DNA of 64,000 nt from Polyangiales bacterium (GCA_046351515.1 JAXLYJ010000005.1:178892-242891), one strand, 5' to 3'. Counted from the stretch's first letter, positions 915 through 54,256 are shown. Made by a program: numbers and translations. Notes: a model not told the origin generated them from the sequence alone.

Positions 915-928
915 GACCGCTCCCCCTC

Positions 929-12728: not shown

Positions 12729-12793
12729 GATCGCGGGGCTTCTATACCGCGACTGCATTCCGTCGGGCATACTCAAACGCGTTGGAGGACCCG

Positions 12794-14989
12794 TTGAGAC
12801 CTCGTTCGATCGCACCCTTTGCTTCAGCCTTGCTCGCGTTCGCGCTCGGTACCGCTGCATGCAGCACCCCTCGAATCACCGAGGACAGCGGCGTCGATGA
12901 CGCGCAAGCGATGGACGGGACCGTGTCCGACATCGTCGTTCTCGACACGGTCGTCGGTGACGTCGGGCCCGATACGGGCTCGCTCGGCAGGTCGTGCACG
13001 CGCAACGCGCAGTGCGACGACGGGATCGAGTGCACCGACGATTTGTGCGGGACCAACGGTCGCTGCGAGAACATTCCTAACGCGATGCGCTGTGACAACG
13101 GCGTGTACTGCGACGGGCTCGAGCGCTGCGACACCCGTCGGGGCTGCATGCGCGGCGATCCCGTGACGTGCAACGACAACGAGGTCTGCACCGCCGATCG
13201 CTGCGACGAAACGACGCGCTCGTGTGTAAACCAACCGCTCGACCGCGACGGCGACGGCGATCCTGACGATCATTGCTGGGATCGCATGTGCGCCTCGGGC
13301 GACGCGGGCCTCGGCGACGCCACGCGCAACGACGCCGGCGTGTTGACCTGCTGGATCGGCCGCGACTGCAACGACTCGGACCCGCGCGTCGCGTCGACGA
13401 ACGCAGAGATTTGCAACGACATGATCGACAACAACTGCAACGGGATGGTCGATTCGGCCGAGCCCGGCGGTTGTCGATCGGCGCCCAACGATCGCTGCGA
13501 CGATCCGCTCGACGTTTCGCGAGGCGGAACGTTCACGATGGACCTCACCGCGACGCCGGGTGACTACGTCTTCAGCTGCGCCTCGCGACAGACCCGCGAC
13601 GCCGTCGCGCGCTTCACGCTCACCGAGCCGAGGGACATCGCGATCACGGCGAGCTCGGACAGCGGCGTGACGGCGATCGCGCTGCAGTCGAACTGCGGCG
13701 GGAGCGCGACGATGGACACGCTCGAGTGCGACCAGGGATTTCCCGGGACGATTCGACGTCACTCGCTGCCGGCGGGCACGTACTTCATCCTCGTCGGCTC
13801 GTCCGTGCGCGGCCCCGTCGACCTCACGGTGAACCTGTTGCCGGCGACTCCAGCGCCCACGAACGACCAGTGCGCGGACGCGATCGAGATCCCCGCTCCC
13901 GCAGGCGGAACGTTTCGCTCGGACCTCATCGGCGTCACCGATCAAGTCTCGACGAGCTGCGGCTCGAGCGCGCGCGATGTGTTCTATCGCTTCACGCTCA
14001 CCGAGCCGAAGAACGTCACGCTCTCGGCGGCCGCCGGTCGCTTGGACAACCTGTACATCTCGCTGCTCGCGAACTGCCAGCGCTCTCCGACGACGCTGCG
14101 CTGCGAGTCTGGGCAGAGCCCGACGTTTCGCGCGTTCTCGCTGCCTGCGGGGACGTACTACGTCGCGGTTGAGTCGTTCGACCCGGTGGCGTTCTCGATG
14201 ACGGCCACGTTCTCGGACCCGACGCCGCCCCCGATGGGAGACACGTGCGCGAGCGCGCTTGCGCTCACGACGGCGGCGCCCGTTCGAGTCAACACTGGAG
14301 CGCTCGAGAACGACTATCGCCCCTCGTGCTTCTCTTCGGGACGCGACGGCGTGCTCACCTTCACGTTGACCGAGCGCCAGGACGTGCTCGTGACGGCGCA
14401 GGGCAGCTCGTCGGACTACGTCGCCGTGGCGATTCACACGGCGTGTCCCATCTCGGGCGCCAACGAGCGCGCGTGCGTGGCCAACTCCACCGCAGGCCGC
14501 GCCCTCGCGCTCGGCCTCGATCCCGGAACGTACTTCGTCACCGTGAAGAGCTCGCGCCCTGCGGATCTGCAAGTGCGCCTCAACACGTACGCTCCGGTCT
14601 CGGTCACCACGCCGATGGGCGGTGACACCTGCGCCGCGGCCATCGGCCTGACCGCGGATCGCATGCTCTTTCGCGGAACGACCATGGGCCTCACCAACGA
14701 CTACCGCGGCAGCTGCGCGAGCTCGACGGGCCCCGACGTGGTCTATCAGGTCCGCGTCGATCGCACGCGTCGCTTCACAGCCCTGCTCGACTCGACCTTC
14801 TTCAACGTGATGTACATCACCCGCGACGACGCGTGCCCTGGGATGCCGGCCACCACGATGGGCAGCAACTGCACGCTCGGATCGCGTTCGACCATCGACC
14901 TGACGCTCGAGCCTGGCACGTATCGACTCTTCGTCGACGCGCTCTCGGGAACGGGCGGGATGTACACGCTCTACACGCAGCTCGAGTAG
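12794..14989 (+). CDS. Secreted cysteine-rich protein: Myxococcus cysteine-rich repeats, a MopE-like motif, and four roughly 110-aa beta-sandwich (PPC-like) repeats
   Basis: Probable TTG start at 12794 preceded by GGAGGA. Signal MRPRSIAPFASALLAFALGTAAC. CDDGIECTDDLCGTNGRCE / C..D.C repeats. CNDSDPRVASTNAEICNDMIDNNCNGMVDSAEPGGC. Four repeats beginning FTLTEP(R/K).... Confidence 0.6.
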   Translation: MRPRSIAPFASALLAFALGTAACSTPRITEDSGVDDAQAMDGTVSDIVVLDTVVGDVGPDTGSLGRSCTRNAQCDDGIECTDDLCGTNGRCENIPNAMRCDNGVYCDGLERCDTRRGCMRGDPVTCNDNEVCTADRCDETTRSCVNQPLDRDGDGDPDDHCWDRMCASGDAGLGDATRNDAGVLTCWIGRDCNDSDPRVASTNAEICNDMIDNNCNGMVDSAEPGGCRSAPNDRCDDPLDVSRGGTFTMDLTATPGDYVFSCASRQTRDAVARFTLTEPRDIAITASSDSGVTAIALQSNCGGSATMDTLECDQGFPGTIRRHSLPAGTYFILVGSSVRGPVDLTVNLLPATPAPTNDQCADAIEIPAPAGGTFRSDLIGVTDQVSTSCGSSARDVFYRFTLTEPKNVTLSAAAGRLDNLYISLLANCQRSPTTLRCESGQSPTFRAFSLPAGTYYVAVESFDPVAFSMTATFSDPTPPPMGDTCASALALTTAAPVRVNTGALENDYRPSCFSSGRDGVLTFTLTERQDVLVTAQGSSSDYVAVAIHTACPISGANERACVANSTAGRALALGLDPGTYFVTVKSSRPADLQVRLNTYAPVSVTTPMGGDTCAAAIGLTADRMLFRGTTMGLTNDYRGSCASSTGPDVVYQVRVDRTRRFTALLDSTFFNVMYITRDDACPGMPATTMGSNCTLGSRSTIDLTLEPGTYRLFVDALSGTGGMYTLYTQLE

Positions 14990-42747: not shown

Positions 42748-44301
42748 TCACGGATCGATCACCGTCGCGGGAGTTCCGAGCTCGGCGCGCACGGACTGTT
42801 CGACCACCCGCAGCAGCGCGAGGCACAGCTCGTCCTTCCATGCGCGCGTGGCGATCTGCACTCCAACCGGGAGCCCGAGGCTCTGGCGGTCCACCTCGCG
42901 CGCTCTGCGAACGACGGTGTCCATCGTCGCCTCGCGGTCGCACTCGTCTTCGCGCACGGTGGTGACGGGCACGACCCCAGCGGGCCAGTGCAAGAGGTTG
43001 AAGAGCATCGTGTACGACGCCGCTTGCGCGAACTGCGCGCCCATCGTGTGCGGGACCGCGGCGGTGGCGAACGGCGGGAGCACCAGCCCGTCGAGCTTCG
43101 CGTCGTCGAGCGCGGCCTCGATCGCGAAGCGCCGCGAGCGCACGGCGGCGATGAGCTTCCAGTAGTCCTGCACCGAGCGCTCTCCGAACGAGCGCAGGAT
43201 CATCGCGGTCAAGCCTTGTCCCGTGAGCTCGAGCGCGCGCGCTGCGGTCGATCGAACGCGGGCCGGGAGCTTGGCGGCGATGAGCATCGACTCGAGCGTG
43301 ACGTCCACCGGACCGTCGCCGACCTGCTCGCGCGCCGTGAGCGCTCCGTCCGCAGAGAGGCACGAAAAATACTCGCGAATCGCATCCGCGTTGCCCGGAA
43401 CGACGAACGGCACCACCTCGACGCCCGCGCGCTCGAGCGCTTGCGCTGCGCGGCGCACGGCGCGGATGTTGGCCTTCGACGGCGCGAGGATCCCGTCGTG
43501 CTCGACGATGCCGATCCGCACTTTGTCGAGGGACTGCACAGCTCGCCAGGGCATCGGCGGCGTGCGTCCGTCCTTTTGCGAGAGCGCTTGCGAATCGAGC
43601 GAGCGCATCGCGAGGTCGATGTCGTCGACCGTGCGGGCCATCGGGCCGCACTGCGAGCGGATCGCTTCTTGTCCGGGCAGGCCCGCGACCAGGCCCTTGT
43701 TGGGCCAGCGGTCCTGCGTGGGCTTGAACCCGACGCACCCAGAAAAATGCGCGGGCAGGCGGATCGATCCGCCGATGTCCGTTCCGATCCCGAGGAGCGA
43801 GCCGCCGTAGACGAGCGCCGCGGCCTCGCCGCCCGACGATCCGCCAGGCGAGTGCGTGAGCTTTCGCGGGTTCGAGCACTGCCCGTACACCGGGTTTCTG
43901 CACTCGAACGAGAGGAGCAGCTGCGGGACGTTCGTTCGCGCGATCACGATCGCGCCCTGCTTGCGCGCCTCGGCGACGACGGGCGCGTCGGCGTTGGCGC
44001 GGATCGACGTTCGCCTGGGCAAACCCAGGGTCGAGACGCATCCCTCCATCTCGATCGACTCTTTGACGGTGATCGGCAGCCCGTGCAGCGCGCCGAGGGG
44101 CTCTCCCTTCGCCCGCGCTTCGTCCGCGCGCCGCGCTTCTTGCCGCGCGCGCTGGTCCAATCGCTCGACCACGGCGTTGACCGCCCCGTCGTGCTTCTCG
44201 ATTCGTCCCAACAGGGCGTCGACAAGCTCGATCGAGCTGATCTTTTTCGCGTCCAGTAGGGCCTTGGCCTCGCTCGCGCTGAGCTCGTGCAACTCGGTCA
44301 T
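42748..44301 (-). CDS. Amidase (amidase-signature family, GatA-like)
   Basis: Start at MTELHELS (44301). AS signature GGSSGGEAAALV and the catalytic Ser-cisSer-Lys region (ITVKE...GGS). Confidence 0.8.
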   Translation of the reverse strand: MTELHELSASEAKALLDAKKISSIELVDALLGRIEKHDGAVNAVVERLDQRARQEARRADEARAKGEPLGALHGLPITVKESIEMEGCVSTLGLPRRTSIRANADAPVVAEARKQGAIVIARTNVPQLLLSFECRNPVYGQCSNPRKLTHSPGGSSGGEAAALVYGGSLLGIGTDIGGSIRLPAHFSGCVGFKPTQDRWPNKGLVAGLPGQEAIRSQCGPMARTVDDIDLAMRSLDSQALSQKDGRTPPMPWRAVQSLDKVRIGIVEHDGILAPSKANIRAVRRAAQALERAGVEVVPFVVPGNADAIREYFSCLSADGALTAREQVGDGPVDVTLESMLIAAKLPARVRSTAARALELTGQGLTAMILRSFGERSVQDYWKLIAAVRSRRFAIEAALDDAKLDGLVLPPFATAAVPHTMGAQFAQAASYTMLFNLLHWPAGVVPVTTVREDECDREATMDTVVRRAREVDRQSLGLPVGVQIATRAWKDELCLALLRVVEQSVRAELGTPATVIDP

Positions 44302-44388
44302 GCTTCGCGCCGTGGTGTAGCACCGTAACGCCGCGCGGTGTTGCTTGCGCGGACGTACTGTCGTAAAGCCCGCGGTCTCGTCGTTGCC

Positions 44389-45297
44389 ATGCGCTGTGGA
44401 TTCGTCGCACTCGTAGGCCGCCCCAACGTGGGCAAGTCGACGCTCCTCAACGCGCTTGTCGGTGAGGACGTCTCCATCGTCGCGTCTCGTCCGCAGACGA
44501 CTCGTGACCGTATTCTCGCGGTGATCACCCGCGATGACGCTCAGTTGATCGTGCTCGATACGCCCGGGATCCACCGTCCGCACGGACGGCTCGGCGAACG
44601 GATGAACCGCGAGGCGACCGCCGCGCTCGCCGACGCCGACGCGGTCGTGATGGTCGCCGACGCGACCGACGGCGCCGCCGGACTCGAGCGCGACGCGCCC
44701 GTGTTCGCTGAGATCGCCTCCCTCAAGAAGCCAGTCTTGCTCGCGCTGAACAAGGTCGACCTCGTGCGTCCGAAGACCGCGATGCTGCCCACGCTCGAGG
44801 CGTACACCAAGGCGCGCGAGTGGACCTCGATCATCCCGATCGCGGCCAAGTCGCGCGACGGCGTCGATCGGCTCGTGAGCGAGTGCCTGGGCCTGCTGCC
44901 CGAGGGGCCGATGCTCTTCCCCGCGGACGCGATCACCGACCGGCCCGAGCGCTTTCTCGTCGCCGAGCGCGTGCGCGAAGCGGTGATCCACGAGACGGCG
45001 GACGAGCTTCCGTACGTCACGGCGGTGGAGGTCGAGCGCTTCGAAGAGGGCGCCAAGCTCGTGCACATCGGCGCGACGATCCACGTCGAGCGCGAGGGGC
45101 AGAAGAAGATCGTGATCGGCGCGGGCGGGGCGCAGATCAAGGCCATCGGTACGCGCGCGCGCCGCGCGATCGAAGCGATGCTCGGTCGAAAAGTGATGCT
45201 GGAGCTCTGGGTCAAAGTCTCTCCGGGATGGACGAAGAACCAGAGCGCGATGGACCGGCTCGGCTACGGCGCGAGCGGTCCGGCGCGACGACGATGA
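44389..45297 (+). CDS. era: GTPase Era
   Basis: G1 GRPNVGKST, G3 DTPG, G4 NKVD, and a C-terminal KH domain (VIGAGGAQIKAIGTRAR). Confidence 0.85.
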   Translation: MRCGFVALVGRPNVGKSTLLNALVGEDVSIVASRPQTTRDRILAVITRDDAQLIVLDTPGIHRPHGRLGERMNREATAALADADAVVMVADATDGAAGLERDAPVFAEIASLKKPVLLALNKVDLVRPKTAMLPTLEAYTKAREWTSIIPIAAKSRDGVDRLVSECLGLLPEGPMLFPADAITDRPERFLVAERVREAVIHETADELPYVTAVEVERFEEGAKLVHIGATIHVEREGQKKIVIGAGGAQIKAIGTRARRAIEAMLGRKVMLELWVKVSPGWTKNQSAMDRLGYGASGPARRR

Positions 45298-45336
45298 CCG
45301 TGGCTTGTTCGATATGTTTGTGAACGGATGGAGTGA

Positions 45337-46920
45337 GTGATGATCAGGTCGAAACCTGGGAAGGCCGCGCGCACCAAGGGCGCCGCGCGTGCGAAGGGCC
45401 CTGTGCGTTCGAAGGGCGCGCGCGTGATGGGCGCCTCGCGAACGAAGAAGAAGGGCGACGCGCCTGCGAAAGACGGCCCGCGCGCGAAGGGGGACGCGAG
45501 CGCGAAGGACGACGCCCGCGAAGAAGAGCGCTTTCGGCGCAAAGAAGTCCCCGCGGACGTGCGCGTGGCGCGAGGCTCGCGCGCGCTCGTCGCGATCGTG
45601 GGAAGGCCCAACGTGGGCAAGAGCACGCTCTTCAACCGCATGGTCGGAAAGCACCTCGCGATCGTCGAAGACACCCCCGGCGTGACGCGCGATCGGCACT
45701 ACGCCGACGCGGAGCTCCGCGGGCGACAGTTCGTCGTCGTGGACACCGGCGGGTTCGACCCCGAGGGCAAAGACCCGGTCGTCGCGGGCATTCGCAATCA
45801 AGTGCGGCTCGCGATCGCAGAGGCCGACGTCGCGGTGTTCGTCACCGACGCCACGGTGCCGCTGACCGACGCGGACCTCGTGGCGCTCGACCTCTTGCGA
45901 CGCAGCGAACGCCCTGTGATTTATGTGGCGAACAAGGCCGACTCGCCCAAGCGAGACGCCGACGCGTTCGAGCTGTACAGCGCGGGGGTGTCCGACGTGA
46001 TCCCGGTCTCGGCCCTGCACGGTCGCGGATTCGAGAAGCTCGAGGACGCGATCCTCTCGAAGCTTCCGCCGCCCGAGGCCGAGGACGTGATCCTCGCGGA
46101 CGACATTCCGCGCGTCGCGGTGGTGGGCCGTCCCAACGCCGGAAAGAGCTCGCTGATCAACCGCCTCGTCGGCCAAGACCGGCTCATCGTGGATTCGCGC
46201 CCAGGCACGACCACGGACGCCATCGACACGATGGTCGAGAAGAACGGCAAGAAGTACGTCTTCGTCGACACCGCGGGGATGCGCCGCAAGCGCAGCGTGA
46301 GCGCGCCGGTCGAGCTCACCTCGGTGATGCAAGCGATCCGAACGATCGAGCGTGCCGACGTCGTCGTGCTCTTGTTCGACGCGACCGAAGAGATCCTCAG
46401 CGACCAGGACCTGCGCATCATCGCCCTCGCAGAAGAGCGCGGGCGCGCGATCATGATCGGGCTCAACAAGGTCGACAAGCTCTCGGCGCAGGCCGAGAAG
46501 AAGGTCGTGCAGACGGCGCGCGAGAGGATCTCGTTCGCCGCGTGGATTCCGATCCTGCGCCTGTCGGCGAAGGAGGGCCGCGGCACGAGCGCGCTGCTCG
46601 ATCAAGTGGACAAGGTGTACGAGTCGTTCTCGAAGCGCGTCGGCACTGGCGAGGTCAACCGCTTCTTCGAAGAGGTGATCGAGAAGCACCCGCCGCCCGT
46701 GCAAAACAACCGCTCGGTGCGGCTCTACTACGTCTCGCAAGTGGGCGTGCGGCCCCCGCGCTTCGCGGCGGTCTCGAACTTCCCCGAGAGCATCGCGGTC
46801 TCGTACGACCGCTACCTGAAGAACCAGATGCGCGAGCGCTTCGGGTTCGAGGGCGTTCCGATCCGGATCAGCTACAAGGCCAAGCGAAAGAAGCAGTACA
46901 CGGGCGAACGCGAGGAGTGA
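45337..46920 (+). CDS. der: GTPase Der (EngA; tandem GTP-binding domains plus KH-like) with a basic low-complexity N-terminal extension
   Basis: Two G domains (GRPNVGKSTLFN...DTGG...NKAD, and GRPNAGKSSLIN...DTAG...NKVD) plus a C-terminal KH-like domain. The first roughly 85 aa are K/R/A/G-rich repeats. Confidence 0.85.
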   Translation: MMIRSKPGKAARTKGAARAKGPVRSKGARVMGASRTKKKGDAPAKDGPRAKGDASAKDDAREEERFRRKEVPADVRVARGSRALVAIVGRPNVGKSTLFNRMVGKHLAIVEDTPGVTRDRHYADAELRGRQFVVVDTGGFDPEGKDPVVAGIRNQVRLAIAEADVAVFVTDATVPLTDADLVALDLLRRSERPVIYVANKADSPKRDADAFELYSAGVSDVIPVSALHGRGFEKLEDAILSKLPPPEAEDVILADDIPRVAVVGRPNAGKSSLINRLVGQDRLIVDSRPGTTTDAIDTMVEKNGKKYVFVDTAGMRRKRSVSAPVELTSVMQAIRTIERADVVVLLFDATEEILSDQDLRIIALAEERGRAIMIGLNKVDKLSAQAEKKVVQTARERISFAAWIPILRLSAKEGRGTSALLDQVDKVYESFSKRVGTGEVNRFFEEVIEKHPPPVQNNRSVRLYYVSQVGVRPPRFAAVSNFPESIAVSYDRYLKNQMRERFGFEGVPIRISYKAKRKKQYTGEREE

Positions 46921-46953
46921 CCGCGCTGCGCTATACTCCGTGGCCGTCAGACC

Positions 46954-48318
46954 ATGGATGATCGCGCGCTCGACCCTTCGCTCACGCTGCTGCTCGACGC
47001 TCTCGAACGCACGCCGGACAACCACGCGCTCCGCGTTCACGTCGCCAACATGCTCGTCGCAGCAGGCCGTCACGATGACGCGCTCAAGCACTTTCGCCAG
47101 TGCGAAGGCGACGCGAAGGTCGGCGCAGACGCGCTGCTCGGCGTCGCGAAATGCACGCTCTCGCTCGGCGATCCCGACGCCTCGCTCGCCGCGTGCGAGC
47201 GCTTGCTCGCGTCGGTACCCAACCACGGAAAGGGCCTGATCGCGAGCGCGCGCGCGCGGCACCAGCGCGGGCAGCACAAAGAGGCGCTCGCCGACTACGA
47301 CCGCGCGATTTCGCTCGATCCGCAGCTCGCTGAGCCTGCGCTCAAGGACGCGTTGATCCGCGACGCGAGCGACCCGCGCGCGCGGTTTCGCGTGGTCTCG
47401 GGCGGAGGCCCCAACCCCGAGCCCTCGCAGAGCGCGGCGATCCCTGACACCAGCGTGGCGGATCGCGTGACCTTCGCCGACGTGGGCGGGCTCGACGAGG
47501 TCAAAGAGAAGATCCGCATGCGGATCGTCTACCCCTTCTCGAACCCCGAGATGTTCAAGGCGTTCGGCAAGAAAATCGGCGGCGGCATCCTCTTCTACGG
47601 CCCTCCCGGCTGCGGAAAGACCTTTCTCGCCAAGGCCACCGCTGGCGAGTGCCGCGCGCACTTCATCAACGTCGGGCTGCACGAAGTGCTCGACATGTGG
47701 ATCGGCAACTCCGAGAAGCAGCTGCACCAGCTCTTCGAAGACGCCCGTCGCCGCGCGCCCGCCGTGCTCTTCTTCGACGAGGTCGACGCGCTCGGAATGC
47801 AGCGCGCCAAGCTCCATTCGGGCTCGATGCGCGGGGTCATCACGCAGTTTCTCGCCGAGCTCGACGGCTTCGCCTCGCGCAACGAGCGCGTGCTCGTCAT
47901 CGGCGCGACCAACACCCCGTGGGACCTCGACTCGGCCTTTCGCCGCCCGGGACGCTTCGATCAAGTGCTCTTCGTCCCGCCGCCCGATCGCCCCGCGCGA
48001 GCGCAGATCCTTCGGCTCAAGACCACAGGAAAGCCCGTCGCCGACCTCGACTTCGACGCCATCGCCGCGCACACCGAAGGCTGGAGCGGCGCCGACCTCG
48101 AGCACCTCATCGACGCCTCGGCCGAGCTCGCGCTCACGCAGTCCATCGCGCGCGGGACGATCGAGCCCATCACCGCGGCGCACGTCGAGAAGGCGCGCGC
48201 CAAGATCCGGCCCACCACCCGCGAGTGGTTCTCGACCGCGCGCAACTACGCGCAGTACGCGAACGAAGCGGGCCAGTACGACGACATCGCGGATTACATC
48301 CGCCGCAACAACTACTGA
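46954..48318 (+). CDS. TPR-domain AAA+ ATPase (classic-clade AAA, Vps4/spastin/katanin-like module)
   Basis: N-terminal TPRs. Walker A GPPGCGKT, Walker B LFFDEVD, second region of homology with arginines (GATNTPWDLDSAFRRPGRFD). Confidence 0.8.
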   Translation: MDDRALDPSLTLLLDALERTPDNHALRVHVANMLVAAGRHDDALKHFRQCEGDAKVGADALLGVAKCTLSLGDPDASLAACERLLASVPNHGKGLIASARARHQRGQHKEALADYDRAISLDPQLAEPALKDALIRDASDPRARFRVVSGGGPNPEPSQSAAIPDTSVADRVTFADVGGLDEVKEKIRMRIVYPFSNPEMFKAFGKKIGGGILFYGPPGCGKTFLAKATAGECRAHFINVGLHEVLDMWIGNSEKQLHQLFEDARRRAPAVLFFDEVDALGMQRAKLHSGSMRGVITQFLAELDGFASRNERVLVIGATNTPWDLDSAFRRPGRFDQVLFVPPPDRPARAQILRLKTTGKPVADLDFDAIAAHTEGWSGADLEHLIDASAELALTQSIARGTIEPITAAHVEKARAKIRPTTREWFSTARNYAQYANEAGQYDDIADYIRRNNY

Positions 48319-48326
48319 GCGCGCTC

Positions 48327-49448
48327 GTGACCTCGCAGGACGCACAAGCCACCGCGCGAAGGCACAAGGCTCGGGCTGAGGCCGCGCTCGAGATCGGCCG
48401 CTATCCGCTCGCGGAGAAAGACGCCCGCGCCGCGCTCGCCGCGGTCCCGAAGGACGTCGACGCGCTGCTCTTTCTCACGCGCGCCCTGCTCGGACAGGGC
48501 CGACACGAAGAGGCCGAGAGCGCCGCGCGCTCGGCGGTCGAAGCGGCGCCGTCCGACGGCTACACGCACTATCTCTTGGGATTTGTCCTGCAAGTCGCCG
48601 GTCGGCACTCGGACGCCGTCGCTCCGTTGCGCGAGGCCGTGCGCTTGCAGCCCCGCGCGCCTCGCTATCACGCGCGGCTCGCCATCGCCCTGTGCGAGTC
48701 CGGCGCGAAGGACGAAGCGCGGCTCGTCATCGAGGGCGTCGCCTCGCTCAGCGCCGAGGACGCCCTGCTCGTCGACGAGTGCGCGCGGGTGTACTCGGCG
48801 CTCGCGCAGCACGATCGCGCAGAGCAGTTCGCGCGCCGCGCGGTCGCGCTTCGACCGACGGACCCGACGACGCACTGGCGCCTCGCGTGGGTGCTCGCCA
48901 ACCAGCGCGCGTTCGCCGCGTCCGCAGACTCGGCGATGGCCGCGCTCGAGATCGATCCGAACTACTGGGCCGCGTGGGAGGAGCTCGGCTACTCGCTCTT
49001 CGAGCAGCGCGCGGACGGCGACGCCGAGGCCGCGCTCGCCGAGGCTCTGCGGTTGAAGCCAGGGCTTCGCTCGGCGGCGTTCAACCTCGCGGCGCTCTAT
49101 CGAAGGCAAGGCCGCCTCGCGCGCGCCGAGCGCGTGTGCGACGCGGCGCTCAGCGTCGACCCGCGGCACGAGCAGCTCTCGCGTGTTCGCGAGCGGGTGA
49201 GGGCGGACCTCGCGCAGCTCGACCGCCAGCGCAACGAGCGCGTGGCGGTGCTGCTCAGCATGGCGATCCTGTCTGTGATTTCCGCGGCAAACGCGCGCTC
49301 GATGTTCACGCTCGCGCTCTCGGCGATCTTCGCCTTGTGCGCCGTGGTCGTCGCGATCGTCGCGGCGATGCCGCCGCCCGCAGACGACGCTCCCGCTCCG
49401 CTTCCTTCGCTGCTGGCCAAGAGAGCTCGCCCCGAGGAGCTGGCGTGA
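48327..49448 (+). CDS. TPR-repeat protein with a C-terminal TM helix
   Basis: GTG start 8 bp after the AAA gene stop. Multiple TPRs. C-terminal hydrophobic segment LALSAIFALCAVVVAIVAAM. Confidence 0.55.
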   Translation: MTSQDAQATARRHKARAEAALEIGRYPLAEKDARAALAAVPKDVDALLFLTRALLGQGRHEEAESAARSAVEAAPSDGYTHYLLGFVLQVAGRHSDAVAPLREAVRLQPRAPRYHARLAIALCESGAKDEARLVIEGVASLSAEDALLVDECARVYSALAQHDRAEQFARRAVALRPTDPTTHWRLAWVLANQRAFAASADSAMAALEIDPNYWAAWEELGYSLFEQRADGDAEAALAEALRLKPGLRSAAFNLAALYRRQGRLARAERVCDAALSVDPRHEQLSRVRERVRADLAQLDRQRNERVAVLLSMAILSVISAANARSMFTLALSAIFALCAVVVAIVAAMPPPADDAPAPLPSLLAKRARPEELA

Positions 49449-50203
49449 GCGAGGCCTTCGAGCGACGGCTCGCGCTCGCGACAGCGCTCGGTCGAACGCG
49501 GCGCCTTCGCGAGTGCGCCATCGCGTGCGAGTCGCTGTGCTCCGAGGCCCCCGAGGACGTGCGCCCCTGGCGTCTGCTCGCGTGGACGCACTTCGAGTCG
49601 GGCTCGCTCGAGCCAGCGATCGAGGCCGCTCGACGCGCGCTCGCGATCGACGCGAACGACGCGGACTCGTTGCGCGTGCTCGGCCGATCGCTCGCTCGCT
49701 CGGGCTCGCTCGACGAAGCGATCGAGTCCCTCGCGCGCGTCGCGACGCTCGCGCGCACCCGGCCGACAGACGATGGCGAAGACGAGGCGCGGCTCGCGCG
49801 CGTGTGCGCCTCGAGCGAACGGCACCGGGACGAAGCCGCCGCACGCGTGCGCGCCGCGGTGTTCCAAGCAAACACCAGCGCGCGTGCGCTGCACCAATGG
49901 CTGCGCGCGGCGGGCACGTTGGCGCTCGACGAGCACGCAGAGCGCATCGCCCGCGCGCTGCTCGAACGGGCGCCGGACGACCCGCACTTTCGCGCGTCGG
50001 TGGCCTCGACGATGGCGCGGCTCGGTCGCTACGAAGAGGCGCGGGCGCACGCGATGGCGGCGATCGCGGTGGCGCCGAACAACGTGCTCGCGTGGACCGT
50101 TCGGTCGATGGCGTGCGCGAAGCTGGGGCTCGACGAAGAGCGACGCGAGTGCGAGCAGGCGCTGCGCTCGGCGCGGCGCGCGAAACAAGAGCCGCGTGCG
50201 TAG
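49445..50203 (+). CDS. TPR-repeat protein
   Basis: GTG start overlapping the upstream stop (GTGA). TPR-like helical repeats run throughout. Confidence 0.5.
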   Translation: MSEAFERRLALATALGRTRRLRECAIACESLCSEAPEDVRPWRLLAWTHFESGSLEPAIEAARRALAIDANDADSLRVLGRSLARSGSLDEAIESLARVATLARTRPTDDGEDEARLARVCASSERHRDEAAARVRAAVFQANTSARALHQWLRAAGTLALDEHAERIARALLERAPDDPHFRASVASTMARLGRYEEARAHAMAAIAVAPNNVLAWTVRSMACAKLGLDEERRECEQALRSARRAKQEPRA

Positions 50204-50221
50204 AACTTCCTGTGAATTTGC

Positions 50222-51184
50222 TTACAGGTTGATTTGTGGTGCGTAGAGCACGATCGTCTCGTCGTCCACGTGCTCGACCGCGTAGCCGAGCGCCCACACC
50301 TCGCACAGGGGCGTGAACGGGTTGGGCTTCTTCTCGCGCGCCGAGAGCGCCCAGCTCCAGTGGTTGACCGCGTCGCGCTCGCACGCGCGCAGCCAGTTGC
50401 CGAAGTGGATCTCGAACAGCGGCGCCGCTTGCCAGCGCGAGTATTCGCCGTAGCGCGGGCCGAACTTCGGGACGTACAGCCCGTCTTTCCACAGCACGTA
50501 GCCGTCGGGAACAGGCAGCTCGGCTCTCAATCCGAGCGCGTCGCGAAAGCGGCGAAACTCTTCCCACGTCCCGGGCTTGGCCGACTTCGCCCGCGCGTAT
50601 CCGGGGCGCTTGTCGCCGCGCGGGCCCCAGTTGTCGAGGGGGCTCACGCGCCAGATGAGCGGAGCCTCTCGCGCCGCGGTGTCGCCGTACAGTCGCTCGA
50701 AGCACGTGCGCGCGAGCGCTTCAGCCGCGGTGACTCCCTTCGGGTCGCACGCGAGCGTCGCGGCCGCCTCGATCGTCGCGGGGACGCTGGCTCGCTCGCA
50801 CTCGACGGCGTGTCCAGTGAACACTGAGCTCTCGCACAACTCACAGCGAAAGCCGTTGCTCACGATTTGTCGCGCGCCGCTTGTGGTCCACTCGACGGGG
50901 ATCAGCTCTCGCGCCGCGAGCGTCTCCCACGCTTCGTCCGCTTGCTCGAGGCCCACGAGCGCCGCGCGCACGGCGTCGAGCTGAGGCCGCTCTGGATTGA
51001 GCAGTCGTTGCGCGAACGACTCGGGGCTCAGCCCCGCGATGCGATCGGTGCGTCGAGGGTCGTCGCTCTCTCCGGACTCTCGCGCCTCGCGCTCCATCGC
51101 CACGAACGAAGGGACCAGCTCGGCGGGCTTCTTCGACCCGATGCGGCCCACTCTGGGAGCCGCTCTCTTCTTCGACGTTGCCAT
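50222..51184 (-). CDS. Hypothetical protein
   Basis: A 320-aa ORF with coherent codon usage, including a possible Cys/His cluster (CELCESS...H..C). No family was recognised. Confidence 0.45.
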   Translation of the reverse strand: MATSKKRAAPRVGRIGSKKPAELVPSFVAMEREARESGESDDPRRTDRIAGLSPESFAQRLLNPERPQLDAVRAALVGLEQADEAWETLAARELIPVEWTTSGARQIVSNGFRCELCESSVFTGHAVECERASVPATIEAAATLACDPKGVTAAEALARTCFERLYGDTAAREAPLIWRVSPLDNWGPRGDKRPGYARAKSAKPGTWEEFRRFRDALGLRAELPVPDGYVLWKDGLYVPKFGPRYGEYSRWQAAPLFEIHFGNWLRACERDAVNHWSWALSAREKKPNPFTPLCEVWALGYAVEHVDDETIVLYAPQINL

Positions 51185-51224
51185 CGCGCGCGATGCTATC
51201 GCTCGTGCGCGCGCGTCGGCACCG

Positions 51225-51860
51225 TCACGCCATCGACGCGGTCGAGAACTCGTCGATCCGCCGACCGCTGCGCACGAGGTCCGTGAGCCACCCGCCGTTG
51301 ACCAGCTCGATCACCGTGCGAACGACGGCCTCGCGGTCGAAGCCGTGCTCGCGCAGCGAGAGCTGATAGAGAAACTCCTTCACGATGCCCAACACGCACA
51401 GCGCGCGCGCCTTGGAGTCGCCGGGCCGCACCATCCCCACGCGCTCTCCCTCGACGAGGGCGCGCACGATCATCGAGGTCACGCCGTCGTAGAACGCGAG
51501 GAGCTTTCGATCGAACTCGGGGTCGAGCCCCACGGCTTCGTTGAACAAGATCCGCGCGAGCGCCGGCTCGTTCACGAACACGCGAACGACGCGATCGACG
51601 TTGTCCGTGAGCTGCTCGAGCGGCGAGAGGTCTCGACGCGCGAGGTCGATCGCATAAATCGCAGCGTTGACCGCGTCGACGCAGTTGTCGACCAGCTCGC
51701 TGAAGATCGCGCGCTTGTCGCCGAAGTACAGGTAGAACGTGCCTCGCGCGACGCGGGCGCGCGCGACGATGTCGTCGATCTTGGCGTGGTGGTAGCCCTT
51801 CTCCGCGAAGATCGCCTTGGCGACCTCGAGGATTTGGGCCCGTCGTTGCTCACGTTCCAT
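51225..51860 (-). CDS. TetR-family transcriptional regulator
   Basis: N-terminal HTH ILEVAKAIFAEKGYHHAKIDDIVARARVARGTFYLYF. Confidence 0.75.
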   Translation of the reverse strand: MEREQRRAQILEVAKAIFAEKGYHHAKIDDIVARARVARGTFYLYFGDKRAIFSELVDNCVDAVNAAIYAIDLARRDLSPLEQLTDNVDRVVRVFVNEPALARILFNEAVGLDPEFDRKLLAFYDGVTSMIVRALVEGERVGMVRPGDSKARALCVLGIVKEFLYQLSLREHGFDREAVVRTVIELVNGGWLTDLVRSGRRIDEFSTASMA

Positions 51861-51906
51861 CGGTCGGACGCTGCGCTCTCGGCGACAACGGGTAGCACAC
51901 CGCAGG

Positions 51907-52533
51907 TCAGACCGAGAAGAGCGAGCCTGCCACCTGCGCGAGCAGCGCGCTGTCCGCGCGCGCGTCGTCGGCGGGGGCGAGGTCGAGTCGAGCCCTCTCC
52001 GAGAGCGCTGAAATCACCGCGAGGATCACCCTGCCGGCCTGCGCGGGAGGCAGCTTCAACGCGAGCCCCGCCGCTTCACCGAGCGACTGCGCCTGCGCTC
52101 CGAGCGCCGCTTCGACCCGCGTCAACGCAGGCGAGAGCCGCTCGCGCATCGCGTGGTCCCTCGCCGCGCGACGAACGAGCTCGGGCCAGCACGCCTGCTC
52201 GACGCCGTCGCTCGCCCGCGCCGCCAGCAGCGCGTTGAGCGCGGCGCGAACGCGGTTCATCCCGACGCCAGCGCTCTGCTCGAACGCCACCGCGACGTCC
52301 TTCTCGAGCGCGCGGCACGCACGGTCCACCACCACCGGCCACAGCTCTTCTTTCGCGGGAAAATGCACGGCCACCGCGCCGCGCGACATCCCGCTCTCTC
52401 TCGCGATCACGTCGATCGTCGCCCCTTCGAACCCGCGCGTCGCCACGGCGCTCATCGCCGCCCGCTCGACCTTGTCCCGCGTCGTCTCTCGTCGCTCTGC
52501 CTGCGTCCTGCGGGCCCGTCGCTCGATCGTCAT
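51907..52533 (-). CDS. TetR-family transcriptional regulator
   Basis: Start at MTIERRARRTQ. HTH VERAAMSAVATRGFEGATIDVIARESGMSRGAVAVHF. It is divergent from the GH1 gene. Confidence 0.65.
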   Translation of the reverse strand: MTIERRARRTQAERRETTRDKVERAAMSAVATRGFEGATIDVIARESGMSRGAVAVHFPAKEELWPVVVDRACRALEKDVAVAFEQSAGVGMNRVRAALNALLAARASDGVEQACWPELVRRAARDHAMRERLSPALTRVEAALGAQAQSLGEAAGLALKLPPAQAGRVILAVISALSERARLDLAPADDARADSALLAQVAGSLFSV

Positions 52534-52621
52534 TCGAAGTGCGACCGTGATGATACTCGCTCTGCGCTCGGTTCCGCGGTGAACTCCGAGGGCGCTGCGA
52601 GTACAACGAACGCCGCCGACG

Positions 52622-54256
52622 ATGAGCGAGGACCACACTTCGAGCCCCCCGCGCGCGCACCGCCCGATCGAGCTCGACGACGCGGCGCTCGCTGAGCTCG
52701 CGCAGAGCGATCTCTCTCTGCTCTCGTCGGTGCAGGTCGGCGTGGCGACCTCGTCGTTTCAGACCGAGGGATCGCTGGATTTGCCTGGTTTTGCGCAGAC
52801 GAACTGGGCGGAGTGGCAGCGGTCCGGCAAGGTCGAGCGCATCGGCGCTGCGTGCGCGCTCTGGGCTCGGTTCGATCGCGTCGTCGAGCGGCTTCAATCC
52901 CTGCGCGCTTCGGTGTTTCGCCTCTCGTTCGAGTGGGCGCGGCTGTGCCCCGACGGTCCCTCGATCGACGCGCGCGCGGCGCGAGGCTACGCGCAGCGGC
53001 TCGCCTCGCTGCGTCGCGCGCAGATCGAGCCCATCGTCACGCTGCAGCACTTCACGCACCCCGCGTGGCTCGGGCCCGACCTGTGGCTCGATCGACGCTC
53101 GCCCGAGCTGTTCGCCGCGTACGCGCGCGAGGCCATCGACGCCGTGCAGTCCGCGTTGATCTCGCTCGGCGAGCGTCCGATCACGCGCTGGATCACCGTC
53201 AACGAGTGCAACATGCTCGCGCTCGCGACCTATGGAGCAGGGGTGTTTCCGCATCGCGCGCTCTCGCTCGCCGAGGGCAGCCCCGCCGGCGCCGCCCGCG
53301 CGCTGCTCGCGCTCGATCACCTCGCGACGGCCCACATCCTGGCGTACGACGCGATCCACGCCCTGCACGATCGTCGCGGCTGGCCTGCGCCCGACGTGTC
53401 GCACAACCCCAACCTCGTCGACCTGTACACGCTCAGCGCGCAGTGGCTCGACGCGATGCGCACCAACGCTCGCGCGGGGCGCGCGCGCCAGGCCTTCATC
53501 GATCGGCGCCGCGCGCTCTTCGAAGGCGCCATGCTCGAGTCGCGCGAGGTCCACTCGGCCCGCGCCGACGTCGCTCGCGCGATGGACCGCGCGATCGCCG
53601 CGCCGCTCTCGCTCGAGGCGTTCGAGCGGCTCTCGACGCAGCTCTCGGCGCGCGGGGCGCGGCCCGCGATCGACTCGCGCGCGTTCGACCTGTACGACCC
53701 GTGGACACGAAATCAAGCGCGCGGCGCAGAGCAGGCGCTCGACGCCGTCGCGAGAGGCGACCTCGCCCCCGCGCTCTCGCTGCTCGGATCGACGAGCTTG
53801 GCCCTGGCCGAGCCGTGGGAGTGGCAGTGCGATCCGTGGATGCTCCAGCGCGCGCTGCGAGCGATGCACGACCCAGACGACCCCGTCCCGCTCGACGTGA
53901 TGGAGAACGGAATGGCCGTCGAACGTCAGCCCTCCCGCGAGGTGTGCCCGCGCATCGACGGCGTGCGCAGGCCGGACTTCGTGCGGGGATATGCGCTCGC
54001 CTTCGCCCACGCCCGCTGTGTCCTCGCGCTCCCCGCGCGGACCTACGCGCACTGGACGCTGGTCGACAACTACGAGCTCGGGCGATGGGCTCCGCGCTTC
54101 GGGCTCTTCGCGCTCGAAGACGCGCGCGACGGACGCGCCGGAGAATGGTCGCCCACCGACGCGCAGGGCGACTCGCCTGGGGACGAGCTGCGCGCGTTTT
54201 CGCTGGCCTGCCGCAGCGCGAACGAAGCGCGCGCGTGGGTCGATCGCCCGCGCTGA
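52622..54256 (+). CDS. Divergent glycoside hydrolase family 1 (beta-glucosidase-like) protein
   Basis: GH1 N-terminal signature-like VGVATSSFQTEG. Candidate acid/base motif ITVNECN. Nucleophile motif VMENGMA. Confidence 0.6.
   Translation: MSEDHTSSPPRAHRPIELDDAALAELAQSDLSLLSSVQVGVATSSFQTEGSLDLPGFAQTNWAEWQRSGKVERIGAACALWARFDRVVERLQSLRASVFRLSFEWARLCPDGPSIDARAARGYAQRLASLRRAQIEPIVTLQHFTHPAWLGPDLWLDRRSPELFAAYAREAIDAVQSALISLGERPITRWITVNECNMLALATYGAGVFPHRALSLAEGSPAGAARALLALDHLATAHILAYDAIHALHDRRGWPAPDVSHNPNLVDLYTLSAQWLDAMRTNARAGRARQAFIDRRRALFEGAMLESREVHSARADVARAMDRAIAAPLSLEAFERLSTQLSARGARPAIDSRAFDLYDPWTRNQARGAEQALDAVARGDLAPALSLLGSTSLALAEPWEWQCDPWMLQRALRAMHDPDDPVPLDVMENGMAVERQPSREVCPRIDGVRRPDFVRGYALAFAHARCVLALPARTYAHWTLVDNYELGRWAPRFGLFALEDARDGRAGEWSPTDAQGDSPGDELRAFSLACRSANEARAWVDRPR

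Follow-up and report, generated by a model that had tools for sequence, protein, structure and literature searches.

A TPR-AAA ATPase gene and the gene for a membrane-anchored TPR partner form a widespread, uncharacterised pair in bacteria

Results

Organization of the locus

The window studied here is a stretch of 64,000 nucleotides from a Polyangiales bacterium (GCA_046351515.1 JAXLYJ010000005.1:178892-242891), and positions are counted from its first letter. The genes and signals around the TPR-AAA ATPase gene are the following:

44389..45297, + strand: era, GTPase Era (NF000908, 361.6 bits, cut-off 237); context, outside the module
45337..46920, + strand: der/engA, ribosome biogenesis GTPase Der (TIGR03594, 517.7 bits, cut-off 306.7); context, outside the module
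46932..46937, + strand: -10-like hexamer TATACT, 16 nt 5' of the AAA start codon; candidate promoter element
46954..48318, + strand: TPR-AAA ATPase gene, 454 aa
48327..49448, + strand: gene 2, the partner, GTG start, 373 aa; cytoplasmic TPR domain (~300 aa) and C-terminal membrane anchor
49445..50203, + strand: gene 3, soluble TPR protein, 252 aa (TPR_2, 2.8e-12)
50209..50238, + strand: terminator-like hairpin with a 7-bp stem, then UUGAUUUGUG (RNA fold -14 kcal/mol, z = -2.79)

Searches against Pfam and NCBIfam identified Era, Der and, for the ATPase, TPR, AAA and AAA_lid_3 domains, and returned only TPR matches for genes 2 and 3; Rfam gave no match between 43000 and 52000. The likely start of era is the ATG at 44389, within an open reading frame of 44338..45297. 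GC3 amounts to 0.87-0.89 in all five + strand frames, and the long antisense open reading frames are therefore regarded as high-GC shadows.

The genes are tightly packed. A gap of 39 nt separates era from der, and the der stop codon (TGA, 46918-46920) is followed after a spacer of 33 nt by the ATG of the AAA gene at 46954. The initial annotation had given 39 and 34 bp for these two gaps; the former figure holds, and the latter gap is indeed short but counts one nucleotide less. Its description of three consecutive + strand genes, first 8 bp apart and then overlapping, agrees with our coordinates and junctions: the AAA stop codon (48316-48318) lies 8 nt before the GTG of gene 2 at 48327, the TGA of gene 2 (49446-49448) overlaps the GTG of gene 3 at 49445 (GTGA), and gene 3 ends with TAG at 50201-50203. 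All three genes belong to one coupled block.

Domain organization of the TPR-AAA ATPase

The ATPase can be divided as follows:

46975..47367, + strand: N-terminal TPR domain, residues 8-138, eight helices, about four repeats (Pfam TPR_2, TPR_19, TPR_20; AF2 pLDDT 94-98)
47380..47463, + strand: disordered linker, residues 143-170 (AF2 pLDDT <50)
47464..48213, + strand: classic-clade AAA module with lid (PF00004, 1.1e-40; AAA_lid_3, PF17862, 3.4e-09)
47599-47622, + strand: Walker A, GPPGCGKT, residue 216
47695-47706, + strand: pore loop, MWIG, residue 248
47764-47781, + strand: Walker B, VLFFDE, residue 271
47941-47955, + strand: RRPGR with the arginine fingers, residue 330
48214..48315, + strand: family-specific C-terminal tail of two helices, PTTREWFSTARNYAQYANEAGQYDDIADYI

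With a DGF motif at residue 304 and the sensor-1 asparagine N320, the full set of catalytic and translocation motifs is intact, and the protein possesses what defines the classic AAA clade, namely Walker A and B, the sensor-1 Asn, the SRH arginine fingers, the pore loop and AAA_lid_3. Pfam and NCBIfam matches as well as the motifs confirm the earlier description of an N-terminal half made of TPR repeats and a C-terminal half made of a classic-clade AAA module with intact Walker A/B and arginine fingers. Similarly, the AF2 monomer model consists of the TPR domain, the disordered linker, the AAA domain and two C-terminal helices. Members of the family are recognized by an N-terminal TPR region, a linker, a single AAA domain and the C-terminal tail, and all four are found in the ATPase of the window. 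The linker differs in length among aligned family members. When distant members were scanned, an N-terminal TPR_19/TPR_20 region was detected in all five actinobacterial and Polyangia proteins; a Neobacillus member (locus L063) gave weak TPR-type matches only and a Hyphomicrobiales member (L032) none at E 0.001.

The tail is a hallmark of the family. Residues E424, W425, F426, N437, G440 and D443 are invariant in family alignments, and the pattern P[ST]T.EW[FL]..A[RK]N.A.[YF]AN..G.Y[DN][DE] is kept in almost all members of every phylum sampled (80 or more loci). A query with the tail alone retrieved 418 representative clusters, nearly always with the match at the extreme C-terminus of full-length proteins of 400-480 aa. 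Among PDB entries, the part past RPTT is essentially without a match, one p97 construct aligning weakly into it.

Relationship to known AAA families

The AAA module scores below every curated NCBIfam family cut-off. For the CDC48/p97 family (TIGR01243) 215.4 bits were obtained against a cut-off of 802.65, and the window protein has a single AAA domain, preceded by a TPR domain. FtsH (TIGR01241; 206.5 bits, cut-off 600) was rejected as well, the ATPase having neither a Peptidase_M41 match nor a TM segment, and so were PAN and the proteasomal ATPases (212 bits, cut-off 500; the N-domain is TPR and the C-terminus is not kept as Hb-Y-X), Mpa (pup_AAA; 138.5 bits, cut-off 504.75) and Vps4/CdvC (NF041006; 180.5 bits, cut-off 650; no MIT or Vps4_C match in Pfam). 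EccA (TIGR03922), as representative of the SpoVK/CbbX clade, reached 21 bits against 466.65, and the sensor-1 sequence ATNTPW lacks the GY signature that marks the SpoVK/CbbX/EccA clade (PMC11513918). The view that this is not an ordinary FtsH, CbbX or SpoVK homologue is thereby upheld, all family scores lying under their cut-offs.

The closest resemblance is to p97/VCP/Cdc48. Its D2 domain is the best PDB sequence match (207-212 bits), and Foldseek comparison with isolated p97 D2 gave 38-40% identity and a TMt of 0.68-0.76. Common features are the aromatic pore loop (MWIG here, MWFG in p97 D2), the DGF motif and the double arginine fingers; in addition, a helical element behind the lid aligns with the C-terminal helix region of p97. 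In contrast, p97 has two rings, D1 and D2, whereas the window ATPase has one, and a TPR domain takes the place of the double-psi barrel N-domain. As in p97/Cdc48, function would depend on adaptor proteins; here there is no ubiquitin system, and the adaptor would be a co-transcribed integral membrane TPR protein. Judged by its sequence, the AAA module is a complete classic-clade module of translocase type, closest to p97/Cdc48 D2, and is predicted to thread its substrates.

Other single-ring proteins share partial features. Vps4/CdvC and the meiotic clade also have a single AAA ring preceded by a domain of helical repeats and, behind the lid, a C-terminal helical element; the alignment with the CdvC model begins at residue 100 and takes in the last TPR helices. 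However, the window ATPase has no MIT domain and no beta-domain insert. Neither the window's open reading frames nor the clustering of conserved neighbours contained an ESCRT-III/PspA-like gene near the ATPase gene, and a paper on ESCRT evolution makes no mention of a bacterial TPR-AAA protein. EccA of type VII secretion likewise joins an N-terminal TPR domain to a single AAA domain and works together with a membrane machine, but ESX genes are absent near the window ATPase gene. YjoB of Bacillus subtilis has a single classic AAA domain too; it is a proposed substrate-specific chaperone with a unique N-domain of ~200 residues, which is non-TPR, and is confined to Bacilli (PMC9565160). Its structure has been solved, yet neither the window ATPase nor the Bacillota member L063 has YjoB among its 60 best PDB matches, and a relationship was rejected.

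Pex1/Pex6 and Msp1/ATAD1 are classic-clade AAA unfoldases that extract proteins at the cytoplasmic membrane face; Pex15/Pex26 is a C-terminally anchored receptor that brings Pex1/Pex6 to the membrane, and Msp1 has its own anchor. The likeness to these systems is a functional analogy only, as the sequence relation is limited to the AAA fold, there is one ring here, and TPRs occur in both proteins. Bacterial TPR-AAA fusions other than EccA, and papers on the present family, were not found in the literature searched; most subscription journals lie outside it, which leaves their absence unproven. To that extent, the earlier statement that a TPR-AAA protein with a TPR partner is uncharacterised in bacteria still stands.

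The membrane-anchored partner and gene 3

Gene 2 gave TPR matches only in Pfam and NCBIfam and has no signal peptide. Its anchor is located as follows:

49239..49370, + strand: hydrophobic anchor of gene 2, residues 305-323 (weak) and 326-348 (strong); Kyte-Doolittle 19-residue windows up to 2.86

One weak and one strong segment suggest one or two TM helices. The protein had been described as a TPR protein ending in a TM helix; the TPR domain and a TM-like segment are present, but a tail of 25 residues follows the segment at ~326-348. Gene 2 is thus the adjacent same-strand gene for a TPR protein with C-terminal TM segments that belongs to the definition of the module, and it has orthologues in 18 clusters at 47-97% identity, several of which agree with AAA matches in the length of their longest contig. 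An HMM of the partner N-domain, built from other phyla only, gave 117.7 bits for gene 2 and 57.5, 51.0 and 33.7 bits for the other TPR open reading frames in the window. The JGI name 'Flp pilus assembly protein TadD', carried by two gene-2 orthologues, was rejected as a generic TPR mislabel, tad genes being absent nearby.

Nearly all partners examined have C-terminal hydrophobic segments (also those of the closer relatives L081, L086, L087, L088 and L092), their first 200 or more residues being free of them; the exception is the 227-aa partner of L017, which has no hydrophobic segment. The partners of Planctomycetota, Verrucomicrobiota, Bacteroidota, Cyanobacteriota and Acidobacteriota possess a well-conserved 5-helix membrane domain with the invariant motifs PLFNLLLR and FGR, modelled with an AF2 pLDDT of 95 and belonging to no Pfam family. 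There are 3-4 helices in Actinomycetota and 1-2 in the window, and an HMM of the 5-TM domain did not match gene 2 or the other Myxococcota and actinobacterial partners, which indicates that the conserved 5-helix domain is absent there. Since the membrane part differs between clades, it may do more than anchor the protein in other phyla. Orthology of the partners across clades is proposed on the basis of TPR-repeat similarity and position.

Gene 3 agrees with its earlier description as a soluble TPR protein, with a TPR_2 match and no hydrophobic segment. It is kept in near relatives only (L081, 44%; L086, 29%). A recent duplication of gene 2 was rejected as its origin, the similarity (E 0.013) being generic to the repeats. 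By comparison of sequences, gene 3 is an addition specific to the lineage, and its translation is coupled to that of the partner gene. The two TPR partners initially described therefore fare differently: gene 2 is a conserved, membrane-anchored partner found in many phyla, and gene 3 is a local addition.

Conservation of the gene pair

The wide sample comprised 80 loci from eight phyla among the matches listed, with AAA identities of 36-54%, the closest Myxococcota lying outside it; closer relatives (49-87% AAA identity) were found separately by a search for contigs encoding ATPase homologues. A TPR protein recognized by the partner HMM was encoded directly downstream on the same strand at 58 of the 80 loci, in eight phyla among the matches listed. 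In 31 of these cases the partner overlaps the AAA stop codon by 1 or 4 nt, and in 54 it starts at most 79 nt after it. The partner is also downstream in the closer relatives L081, L086, L087, L088 and L092, lies upstream in L093 (8 nt overlap) and L089 (~50 nt upstream), and occurs as a tandem duplicate in L094. Two Myxococcota loci, L083 (69%) and L084 (62%), have no adjacent partner and retain the tail.

Two genomes annotated independently by RefSeq, those of Streptomyces sp. KN37 and Actinomyces oris, contain such an overlapping pair as well. The RefSeq names are generic only, and neither Pfam, NCBIfam nor RefSeq offers a functional name for the pair. Some copies reside on large Streptomyces linear replicons. 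All-against-all clustering of flanking open reading frames at 87 loci revealed no third conserved neighbour beyond the AAA gene, its shadow open reading frames and the TPR partner, the next-largest cluster covering only 7 loci. The conserved unit is the pair of TPR-AAA ATPase and membrane-anchored TPR partner, which is widespread and uncharacterised.

Transcription and the era-der neighbourhood

The sequence TAYACT occurs only twice on both strands of the 64-kb window. In L081, L083, L084, L086, L087 and L088, a hexamer (TATACT, TACACT, TATGCT, TATTAT or cATACT) lies 12-25 nt 5' of the AAA start, whichever gene precedes. A scan of 43500-51500 for consensus sigma-70 promoters gave 0 sites, and no -35 element for the TATACT hexamer was convincing by eye. 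Concerning the terminator or promoter that, according to the initial annotation, might separate der from 46954, no terminator was found, and the -10-like hexamer is a candidate for the latter. In the absence of both a terminator after der and a consensus promoter, co-transcription of the AAA gene with der is possible. Nevertheless, a putative promoter of its own, a short distance before 46954, probably drives transcription of the AAA block, which would end at the 50209 hairpin. This hairpin probably marks the 3' end of the operon and is shared with the convergent gene 50222..51184 (- strand).

The initial annotation had proposed that era, der and the three genes form one transcription unit, in which an unfoldase with TPR adaptors would remodel ribosome-assembly intermediates together with Era and Der. 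The short spacers (39 and 33 nt), the common strand and the lack of any terminator-like structure in the der-AAA spacer fit this proposal, as do Rix7 and Afg2/Drg1, eukaryotic p97-like AAA proteins acting in ribosome biogenesis, which are among the PDB matches of the window ATPase. Also, in each of the five genomes whose AAA identity is 69% or more, era and der precede the AAA gene within 4 kb. However, the arrangement is interrupted in three of them, by an opposite-strand gene for 616 aa between der and the AAA gene in L087 (79%), by two genes at the same place in L083 (69%), and by two opposite-strand genes between era and der in L086 (78%). Conservation of the neighbourhood in other Myxococcota is limited to these close relatives: at 64% identity and below, era and der are no longer near the AAA gene, nor are they at the 80 loci of other phyla among the matches listed. 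The -10-like hexamer is kept irrespective of the preceding gene, and the conserved partner is a membrane protein, a poor fit to ribosome assembly. We consider a role with Era and Der highly improbable; their adjacency looks like local gene order and not like a functional link, and it should not be taken as a sign of ribosome-assembly function.

Discussion

We propose, with a confidence slightly better than even (about 0.55), that the two-gene module provides a membrane-recruited, substrate-threading unfoldase together with its TPR membrane partner. The ATPase would be a soluble protein made of a TPR domain, a flexible linker, a p97-D2-like AAA ring subunit and the family-specific tail, and by analogy with its family it would form a hexamer. 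The partner, predicted to be anchored in the cytoplasmic membrane by its C-terminal TM segments with the TPR domain facing the cytoplasm, may hold or position the ATPase at the inner membrane face by TPR-mediated contacts, in which the invariant tail or the TPR domain of the ATPase itself may take part. Using ATP hydrolysis and the pore loop MWIG, the ring would then thread, and thereby unfold, extract or disassemble, a particular client at the membrane. Gene 3 could serve as an extra soluble, lineage-specific TPR adaptor.

The membrane protein might instead be the client, with the ATPase controlling the oligomeric state or activity of a partner membrane domain that works as a channel, transporter or enzyme. 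The strong conservation of the 5-helix domain in five phyla and its confident model argue for a role beyond anchoring, and the tandem duplication in L094 would agree. We nonetheless think this unlikely: unrelated segments of 3-4 or 1-2 helices replace the domain in Actinomycetota and Myxococcota, gene 2 of the window having a simple anchor only, while the ATPase, its tail and the partner TPR domain persist. A role of the PAN, Mpa or ClpX type, in which the ATPase would cap and regulate a compartmentalised protease whose gene lies elsewhere, with the TPR proteins as substrate adaptors and an incidental anchor, is very unlikely. With 212 bits, PAN models do reach the score level of CDC48 models, the conserved tail could be a docking element, and classic-clade AAA proteins are often paired with peptidases (PMC11513918). 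However, the C-terminal end differs between members (NNY, HNF, HNL, KL, and basic tails in other phyla) and is not of the HbYX type, the ATPase has no coiled-coil/OB N-domain, no peptidase gene is conserved nearby, and the membrane segments of the partner are kept across phyla.

Scarcely any weight is given to an anti-phage or other conflict system in which an AAA ATPase resembling IetA/IteA would act with a membrane effector. PADLOC IetA models match the AAA domain (1.7e-30), NCBIfam IteA gives 98.9 bits, the membrane partner could serve as effector, and the copies on Streptomyces linear replicons could be seen in the same light. The IteA score is, however, far under its cut-off of 510 and under the scores of the CDC48, PAN and FtsH models, which points to generic AAA similarity. 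Moreover, the PADLOC matches cover the AAA domain only, no IetS-type protease is encoded next to the ATPase gene, no third gene is conserved, the partner has no PADLOC match better than 0.0046, and the neighbourhoods are housekeeping-like and syntenic between relatives. The assignment to IetA/IteA defence was therefore rejected.

Within the proposed membrane-recruited unfoldase, the pair might be a widespread bacterial counterpart of eukaryotic p97- or Msp1-type membrane protein extraction, in which the ring docks on a dedicated integral TPR receptor in the inner membrane and pulls clients out of or off the membrane. The 5-helix domain could then be the dislocation site in other phyla, and the window would hold a streamlined Myxococcota version with a soluble TPR adaptor. 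We regard this extension as speculative and, on balance, rather doubtful.

Membrane-protein quality control in bacteria is generally attributed to FtsH, and, to our knowledge, segregases that resemble p97, lack a protease and have dedicated receptors in the membrane are considered typical of eukaryotes and archaea. The present module, in which an ATPase with one p97-D2-like ring is combined with a fixed TPR partner in the membrane, occurs in at least eight phyla; among its carriers are tractable Streptomyces, Flavobacterium, Chitinophaga and Calothrix as well as the oral commensal Actinomyces oris. With the module defined, genetics and substrate trapping have two concrete genes to work on.

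Organization of the era-der region

Five consecutive genes lie on the forward strand of this genome region (G+C content of the genome about 70%), and their coordinates as well as their start and stop positions confirm the gene order and the junctions proposed in the initial annotation, except that the spacer between der and the AAA gene, although short as described, amounts to 33 nt and not to 34 nt.

44389 (likely ATG start) to 45297, + strand: era, above the curated NCBIfam cut-off
45337 to 46920, + strand: der, above the curated NCBIfam cut-off
46954 to 48318, + strand: TPR-AAA gene (ATPase, 454 amino acids), 33 nt after der
48327 to 49448, + strand: gene 2, TPR protein (373 amino acids), GTG start 8 nt past the AAA stop
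49445 to 50203, + strand: gene 3, TPR protein (252 amino acids), GTG start overlapping the gene 2 stop (GTGA)

All five frames from era to gene 3 show GC3 values of 0.87-0.89, and the very long antisense ORFs are therefore the usual shadows of high-GC genes. Within 44389-46920, era and der are adjacent with a 39-nt spacer, and all five related genomes keep them close together; the era-der order differs from the textbook order rnc-era-recO. If translation starts at 45337, Der carries a Lys/Ala/Arg-rich N-terminal extension of about 80 residues. The next gene after gene 3 is convergent (50222-51184, - strand, 320 amino acids), shares the hairpin region at the gene 3 end, has syntenic counterparts in the relatives L081, L082 and L086, and had no match in Pfam, NCBIfam or PADLOC. 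Further downstream (51225-52638, - strand, and 52622-54256, + strand) are a TetR-family regulator confirmed by Pfam, a second ORF that by synteny with L081 is a putative TetR regulator, and another ORF that appears syntenic with a family-1 glycoside hydrolase of L081, where the same downstream arrangement is present. A search of 43000-52000 against Rfam gave no match.

Transcription signals

No terminator-like structure was seen between der and the AAA gene and read-through is therefore possible, as co-transcription of der-AAA-TPR-TPR would require; however, a conserved -10-like hexamer in front of the AAA start speaks against a single unit. Besides this TATACT (46932-46937), the two strands of the whole window contain a single further TAYACT site. 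Six other Myxococcota genomes have an equivalent hexamer (TATACT, TACACT, TATGCT, TATTAT or cATACT) 12-25 nt before the AAA start, among them loci with a divergent (L087, L088) or an unrelated (L083, L084) upstream gene. We infer that the AAA gene probably has a dedicated promoter and a short leader. A consensus scan detected no full sigma-70 site, and by eye no convincing -35 element accompanies TATACT. Six nt past the gene 3 stop, a hairpin (50209-50238) with a 7-bp stem is followed by a U-rich run (fold energy -14 kcal/mol, z = -2.8).

The ATPase and its C-terminal tail

Pfam analysis of the ATPase revealed TPR repeats at about residues 6-127, one AAA domain (212-342; E 1.1e-40) and AAA_lid_3. 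The intact Walker A (GPPGCGKT), Walker B (VLFFDE) and arginine fingers (RRPGR) noted in the initial annotation are indeed present, together with sensor-1 N320, the inter-subunit DGF motif and an aromatic pore loop MWIG. A monomer model (AlphaFold2, mean pLDDT 84) comprises eight TPR helices (8-138), a disordered linker (143-170), the AAA fold and two extra C-terminal helices (422-435 and 443-452). By sequence, the best solved relatives are D2 domains of p97/Cdc48 (207-212 bits), and in Foldseek comparisons with isolated p97 D2 chains the AAA part showed 38-40% identity and TM-scores of 0.68-0.76. The ATPase falls into no curated family, FtsH and EccA included, as it scored below every curated cut-off (score/cut-off: CDC48 215/803, PAN 212/500, FtsH 206/600, CdvC 180/650, IteA 99/510, EccA 21/467). 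It is thus a classic-clade and apparently competent translocase with a branch to itself.

Homologs are abundant, with 8000 candidates scored, and all those aligned have in common the invariant tail P-[ST]-T-x-E-W-[FL]-x-x-A-[RK]-N-x-A-x-[YF]-A-N-x-x-G-x-Y-[DN]-[DE]. PDB sequence matches to the ATPase essentially end at RPTT before the tail, with one p97 construct aligning weakly beyond it, and in one alignment the tail pairs with the p97 helix after the D2 lid. The tail may be this family's own form of the C-terminal helix known from D2 and meiotic-clade AAA proteins. The tail alone (59-residue query) retrieved 418 representative clusters, and in full-length matches of 400-480 residues it is nearly always located at the extreme C-terminus. 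Most distant members scanned also have an N-terminal TPR_19/TPR_20 region, namely four from actinobacteria, one from Polyangia and one from Acidobacteriota; TPR-type matches are only weak in a Neobacillus member, and no TPR match was obtained for a Hyphomicrobiales member.

Adjacency to era-der is confined to close relatives

Contexts of closer relatives, mostly Myxococcota, with 49-87% AAA identity are compiled in the following table.

Table. Loci around AAA homologs of closer relatives (AAA identity; era/der context; partner, i.e., the TPR protein with C-terminal TM segments encoded beside the AAA gene)
L081; 87%; era-der-AAA-TPR-TPR block with flanks as in the window; partner downstream, plus gene 3
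L086; 78%; era and der split by two opposite-strand genes; partner downstream, plus gene 3
L087; 79%; 616-aa opposite-strand gene between der and AAA; partner downstream, without gene 3
L083; 69%; two genes between der and AAA; no adjacent partner
L088; 64%; without era/der; partner downstream
L084; 62%; without era/der; no adjacent partner
L092; 60%; without era/der; partner downstream
L089; 54%; without era/der; partner upstream, about 50 nt away
L093; 53%; without era/der; partner upstream, 8-nt overlap with AAA start
L094; 49%; without era/der; two tandem partners, each with 4-nt overlap

A wider sample, obtained from one pattern scan of genomes, consisted of 80 loci listed with 36-54% AAA identity and, according to the phylum labels in the database records, included Actinomycetota, Verrucomicrobiota, Planctomycetota, Bacteroidota, Pseudomonadota, Acidobacteriota, Bacillota, Cyanobacteriota and one Sorangium. 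Conservation of the era-der-AAA neighbourhood did not extend beyond close relatives: it was lost at 64% identity and below, and era or der was near the AAA gene in none of the 80 loci listed.

In several Myxococcota relatives, including both that lack an adjacent partner, Ser/Thr kinase genes flank the AAA gene (L083:5648-7966 and 9398-13339; L084:9515-12964; L086:13248-14600), which may be due to chance, kinases being numerous in Myxococcota. In the Polyangia subclade with an upstream partner, the same-strand genes after the AAA gene encode in both genomes a sensor kinase (HisKA/HATPase) and a response regulator of the OmpR type (L089:9278-11788, L093:6758-8982).

A conserved pair of ATPase and membrane TPR partner

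With simple custom scripts for ORF calling, hydropathy and partner HMMs, the next same-strand gene was found to match the N-terminal TPR HMM of the partner (at least 60 bits, similarity scores here and below being inflated by TPR repeats) in 58 of the 80 loci listed; in 31 of these 58 the AAA stop and the start of this gene share 1 or 4 nt, and in 54 it lies at most 79 nt from the AAA gene. In almost every partner examined, hydrophobic segments are present at the C-terminus and absent from the first 200 or more residues, the exception being the L017 partner (227 amino acids), which has no hydrophobic segment. The same overlapping pair appears in the independent RefSeq annotation of Streptomyces sp. 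KN37 and Actinomyces oris, where the ATPase is called no more than 'ATP-binding protein' or 'AAA family ATPase' and the partner no more than 'tetratricopeptide repeat protein'. When flanking ORFs were clustered all against all, no third conserved gene emerged around the pair. In L094:6380-8994 (GCA_028282805.1), two TPR-5TM partner paralogs stand in tandem behind the AAA gene, an AAA-TPR-TPR order that is independent of, though similar to, that of the window.

Gene 2 reached 117.7 bits on a partner HMM built solely from other phyla, and other Myxococcota partners reached 96-139 bits, while the control, a further TPR-repeat ORF of the window (135-1319, - strand), gave 57.5, gene 3 gave 51.0 and the ATPase's own TPR region 33.7 bits. 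The 18 ortholog clusters of gene 2 (47-97% identity) are followed by a sharp score drop, and for several of them the longest contig equals in size that of AAA matches, which suggests that both are on the same contigs. In five phyla, the membrane part of the partner is a strongly conserved five-helix domain (AlphaFold2, pLDDT 95) for which there is no Pfam family and which the sources call only 'hypothetical' or 'TPR repeat protein'. Partners of Actinomycetota have 3-4 helices and those of Myxococcota, including the window, a 1-2 helix anchor. For gene 2, the initial annotation had predicted a terminal TM helix; the hydrophobic region exists, but consists of a strong segment preceded by a weaker one (residues 305-348), and 25 residues follow. 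The partner HMM gives gene 2 a high score, and the five-helix HMM misses it; by its position and its TPR domain, gene 2 is therefore the ortholog of the partner, but its anchor is reduced. Gene 3 does not extend beyond near relatives (L081 with 44% and L086 with 29% identity; absent from L087); a recent copy of gene 2 was considered as its origin and rejected on sequence comparison.

Possible function and relation to known systems

In the ATPase, a flexible linker joins a TPR head to an apparently competent AAA subunit of the classic clade, and the conserved, translationally coupled partner combines a cytoplasmic TPR domain with a membrane anchor. The ATPase would form a hexamer, which the partner would position at the inner face of the membrane, where it could thread a specific client, leading to unfolding, extraction or disassembly; in the lineage of the window, gene 3 might contribute a soluble adaptor. 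Alternatively, though with less probability, the partner's membrane domain might itself be the regulated client, or the ATPase might be a protease cap; no peptidase was found associated with the pair. The pair might also belong to a defence system, or, as the initial annotation proposed, tie ribosome-assembly GTPases to an unfoldase, a model built on an era-der adjacency that is local, whereas the membrane TPR partner is general.

The pair finds its nearest functional analogies, which are not memberships, in p97 and its adaptors, in Pex1/6 together with tail-anchored Pex15/26, and in Msp1. Among described bacterial TPR-AAA fusions we found only EccA, from type VII secretion; it belongs to the SpoVK/CbbX clade and its relation to the window ATPase is limited to the fold, and YjoB is a different single-AAA chaperone. 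In the literature searched, itself incomplete, there was no paper on a TPR-AAA plus TPR-TM family, in line with the earlier view that TPR-AAA proteins with TPR partners are uncharacterised in bacteria. We rate the pair as a widespread, unnamed AAA unfoldase with a TPR adaptor, of which the window harbours a derived form, its anchor being reduced and one more TPR gene being present.
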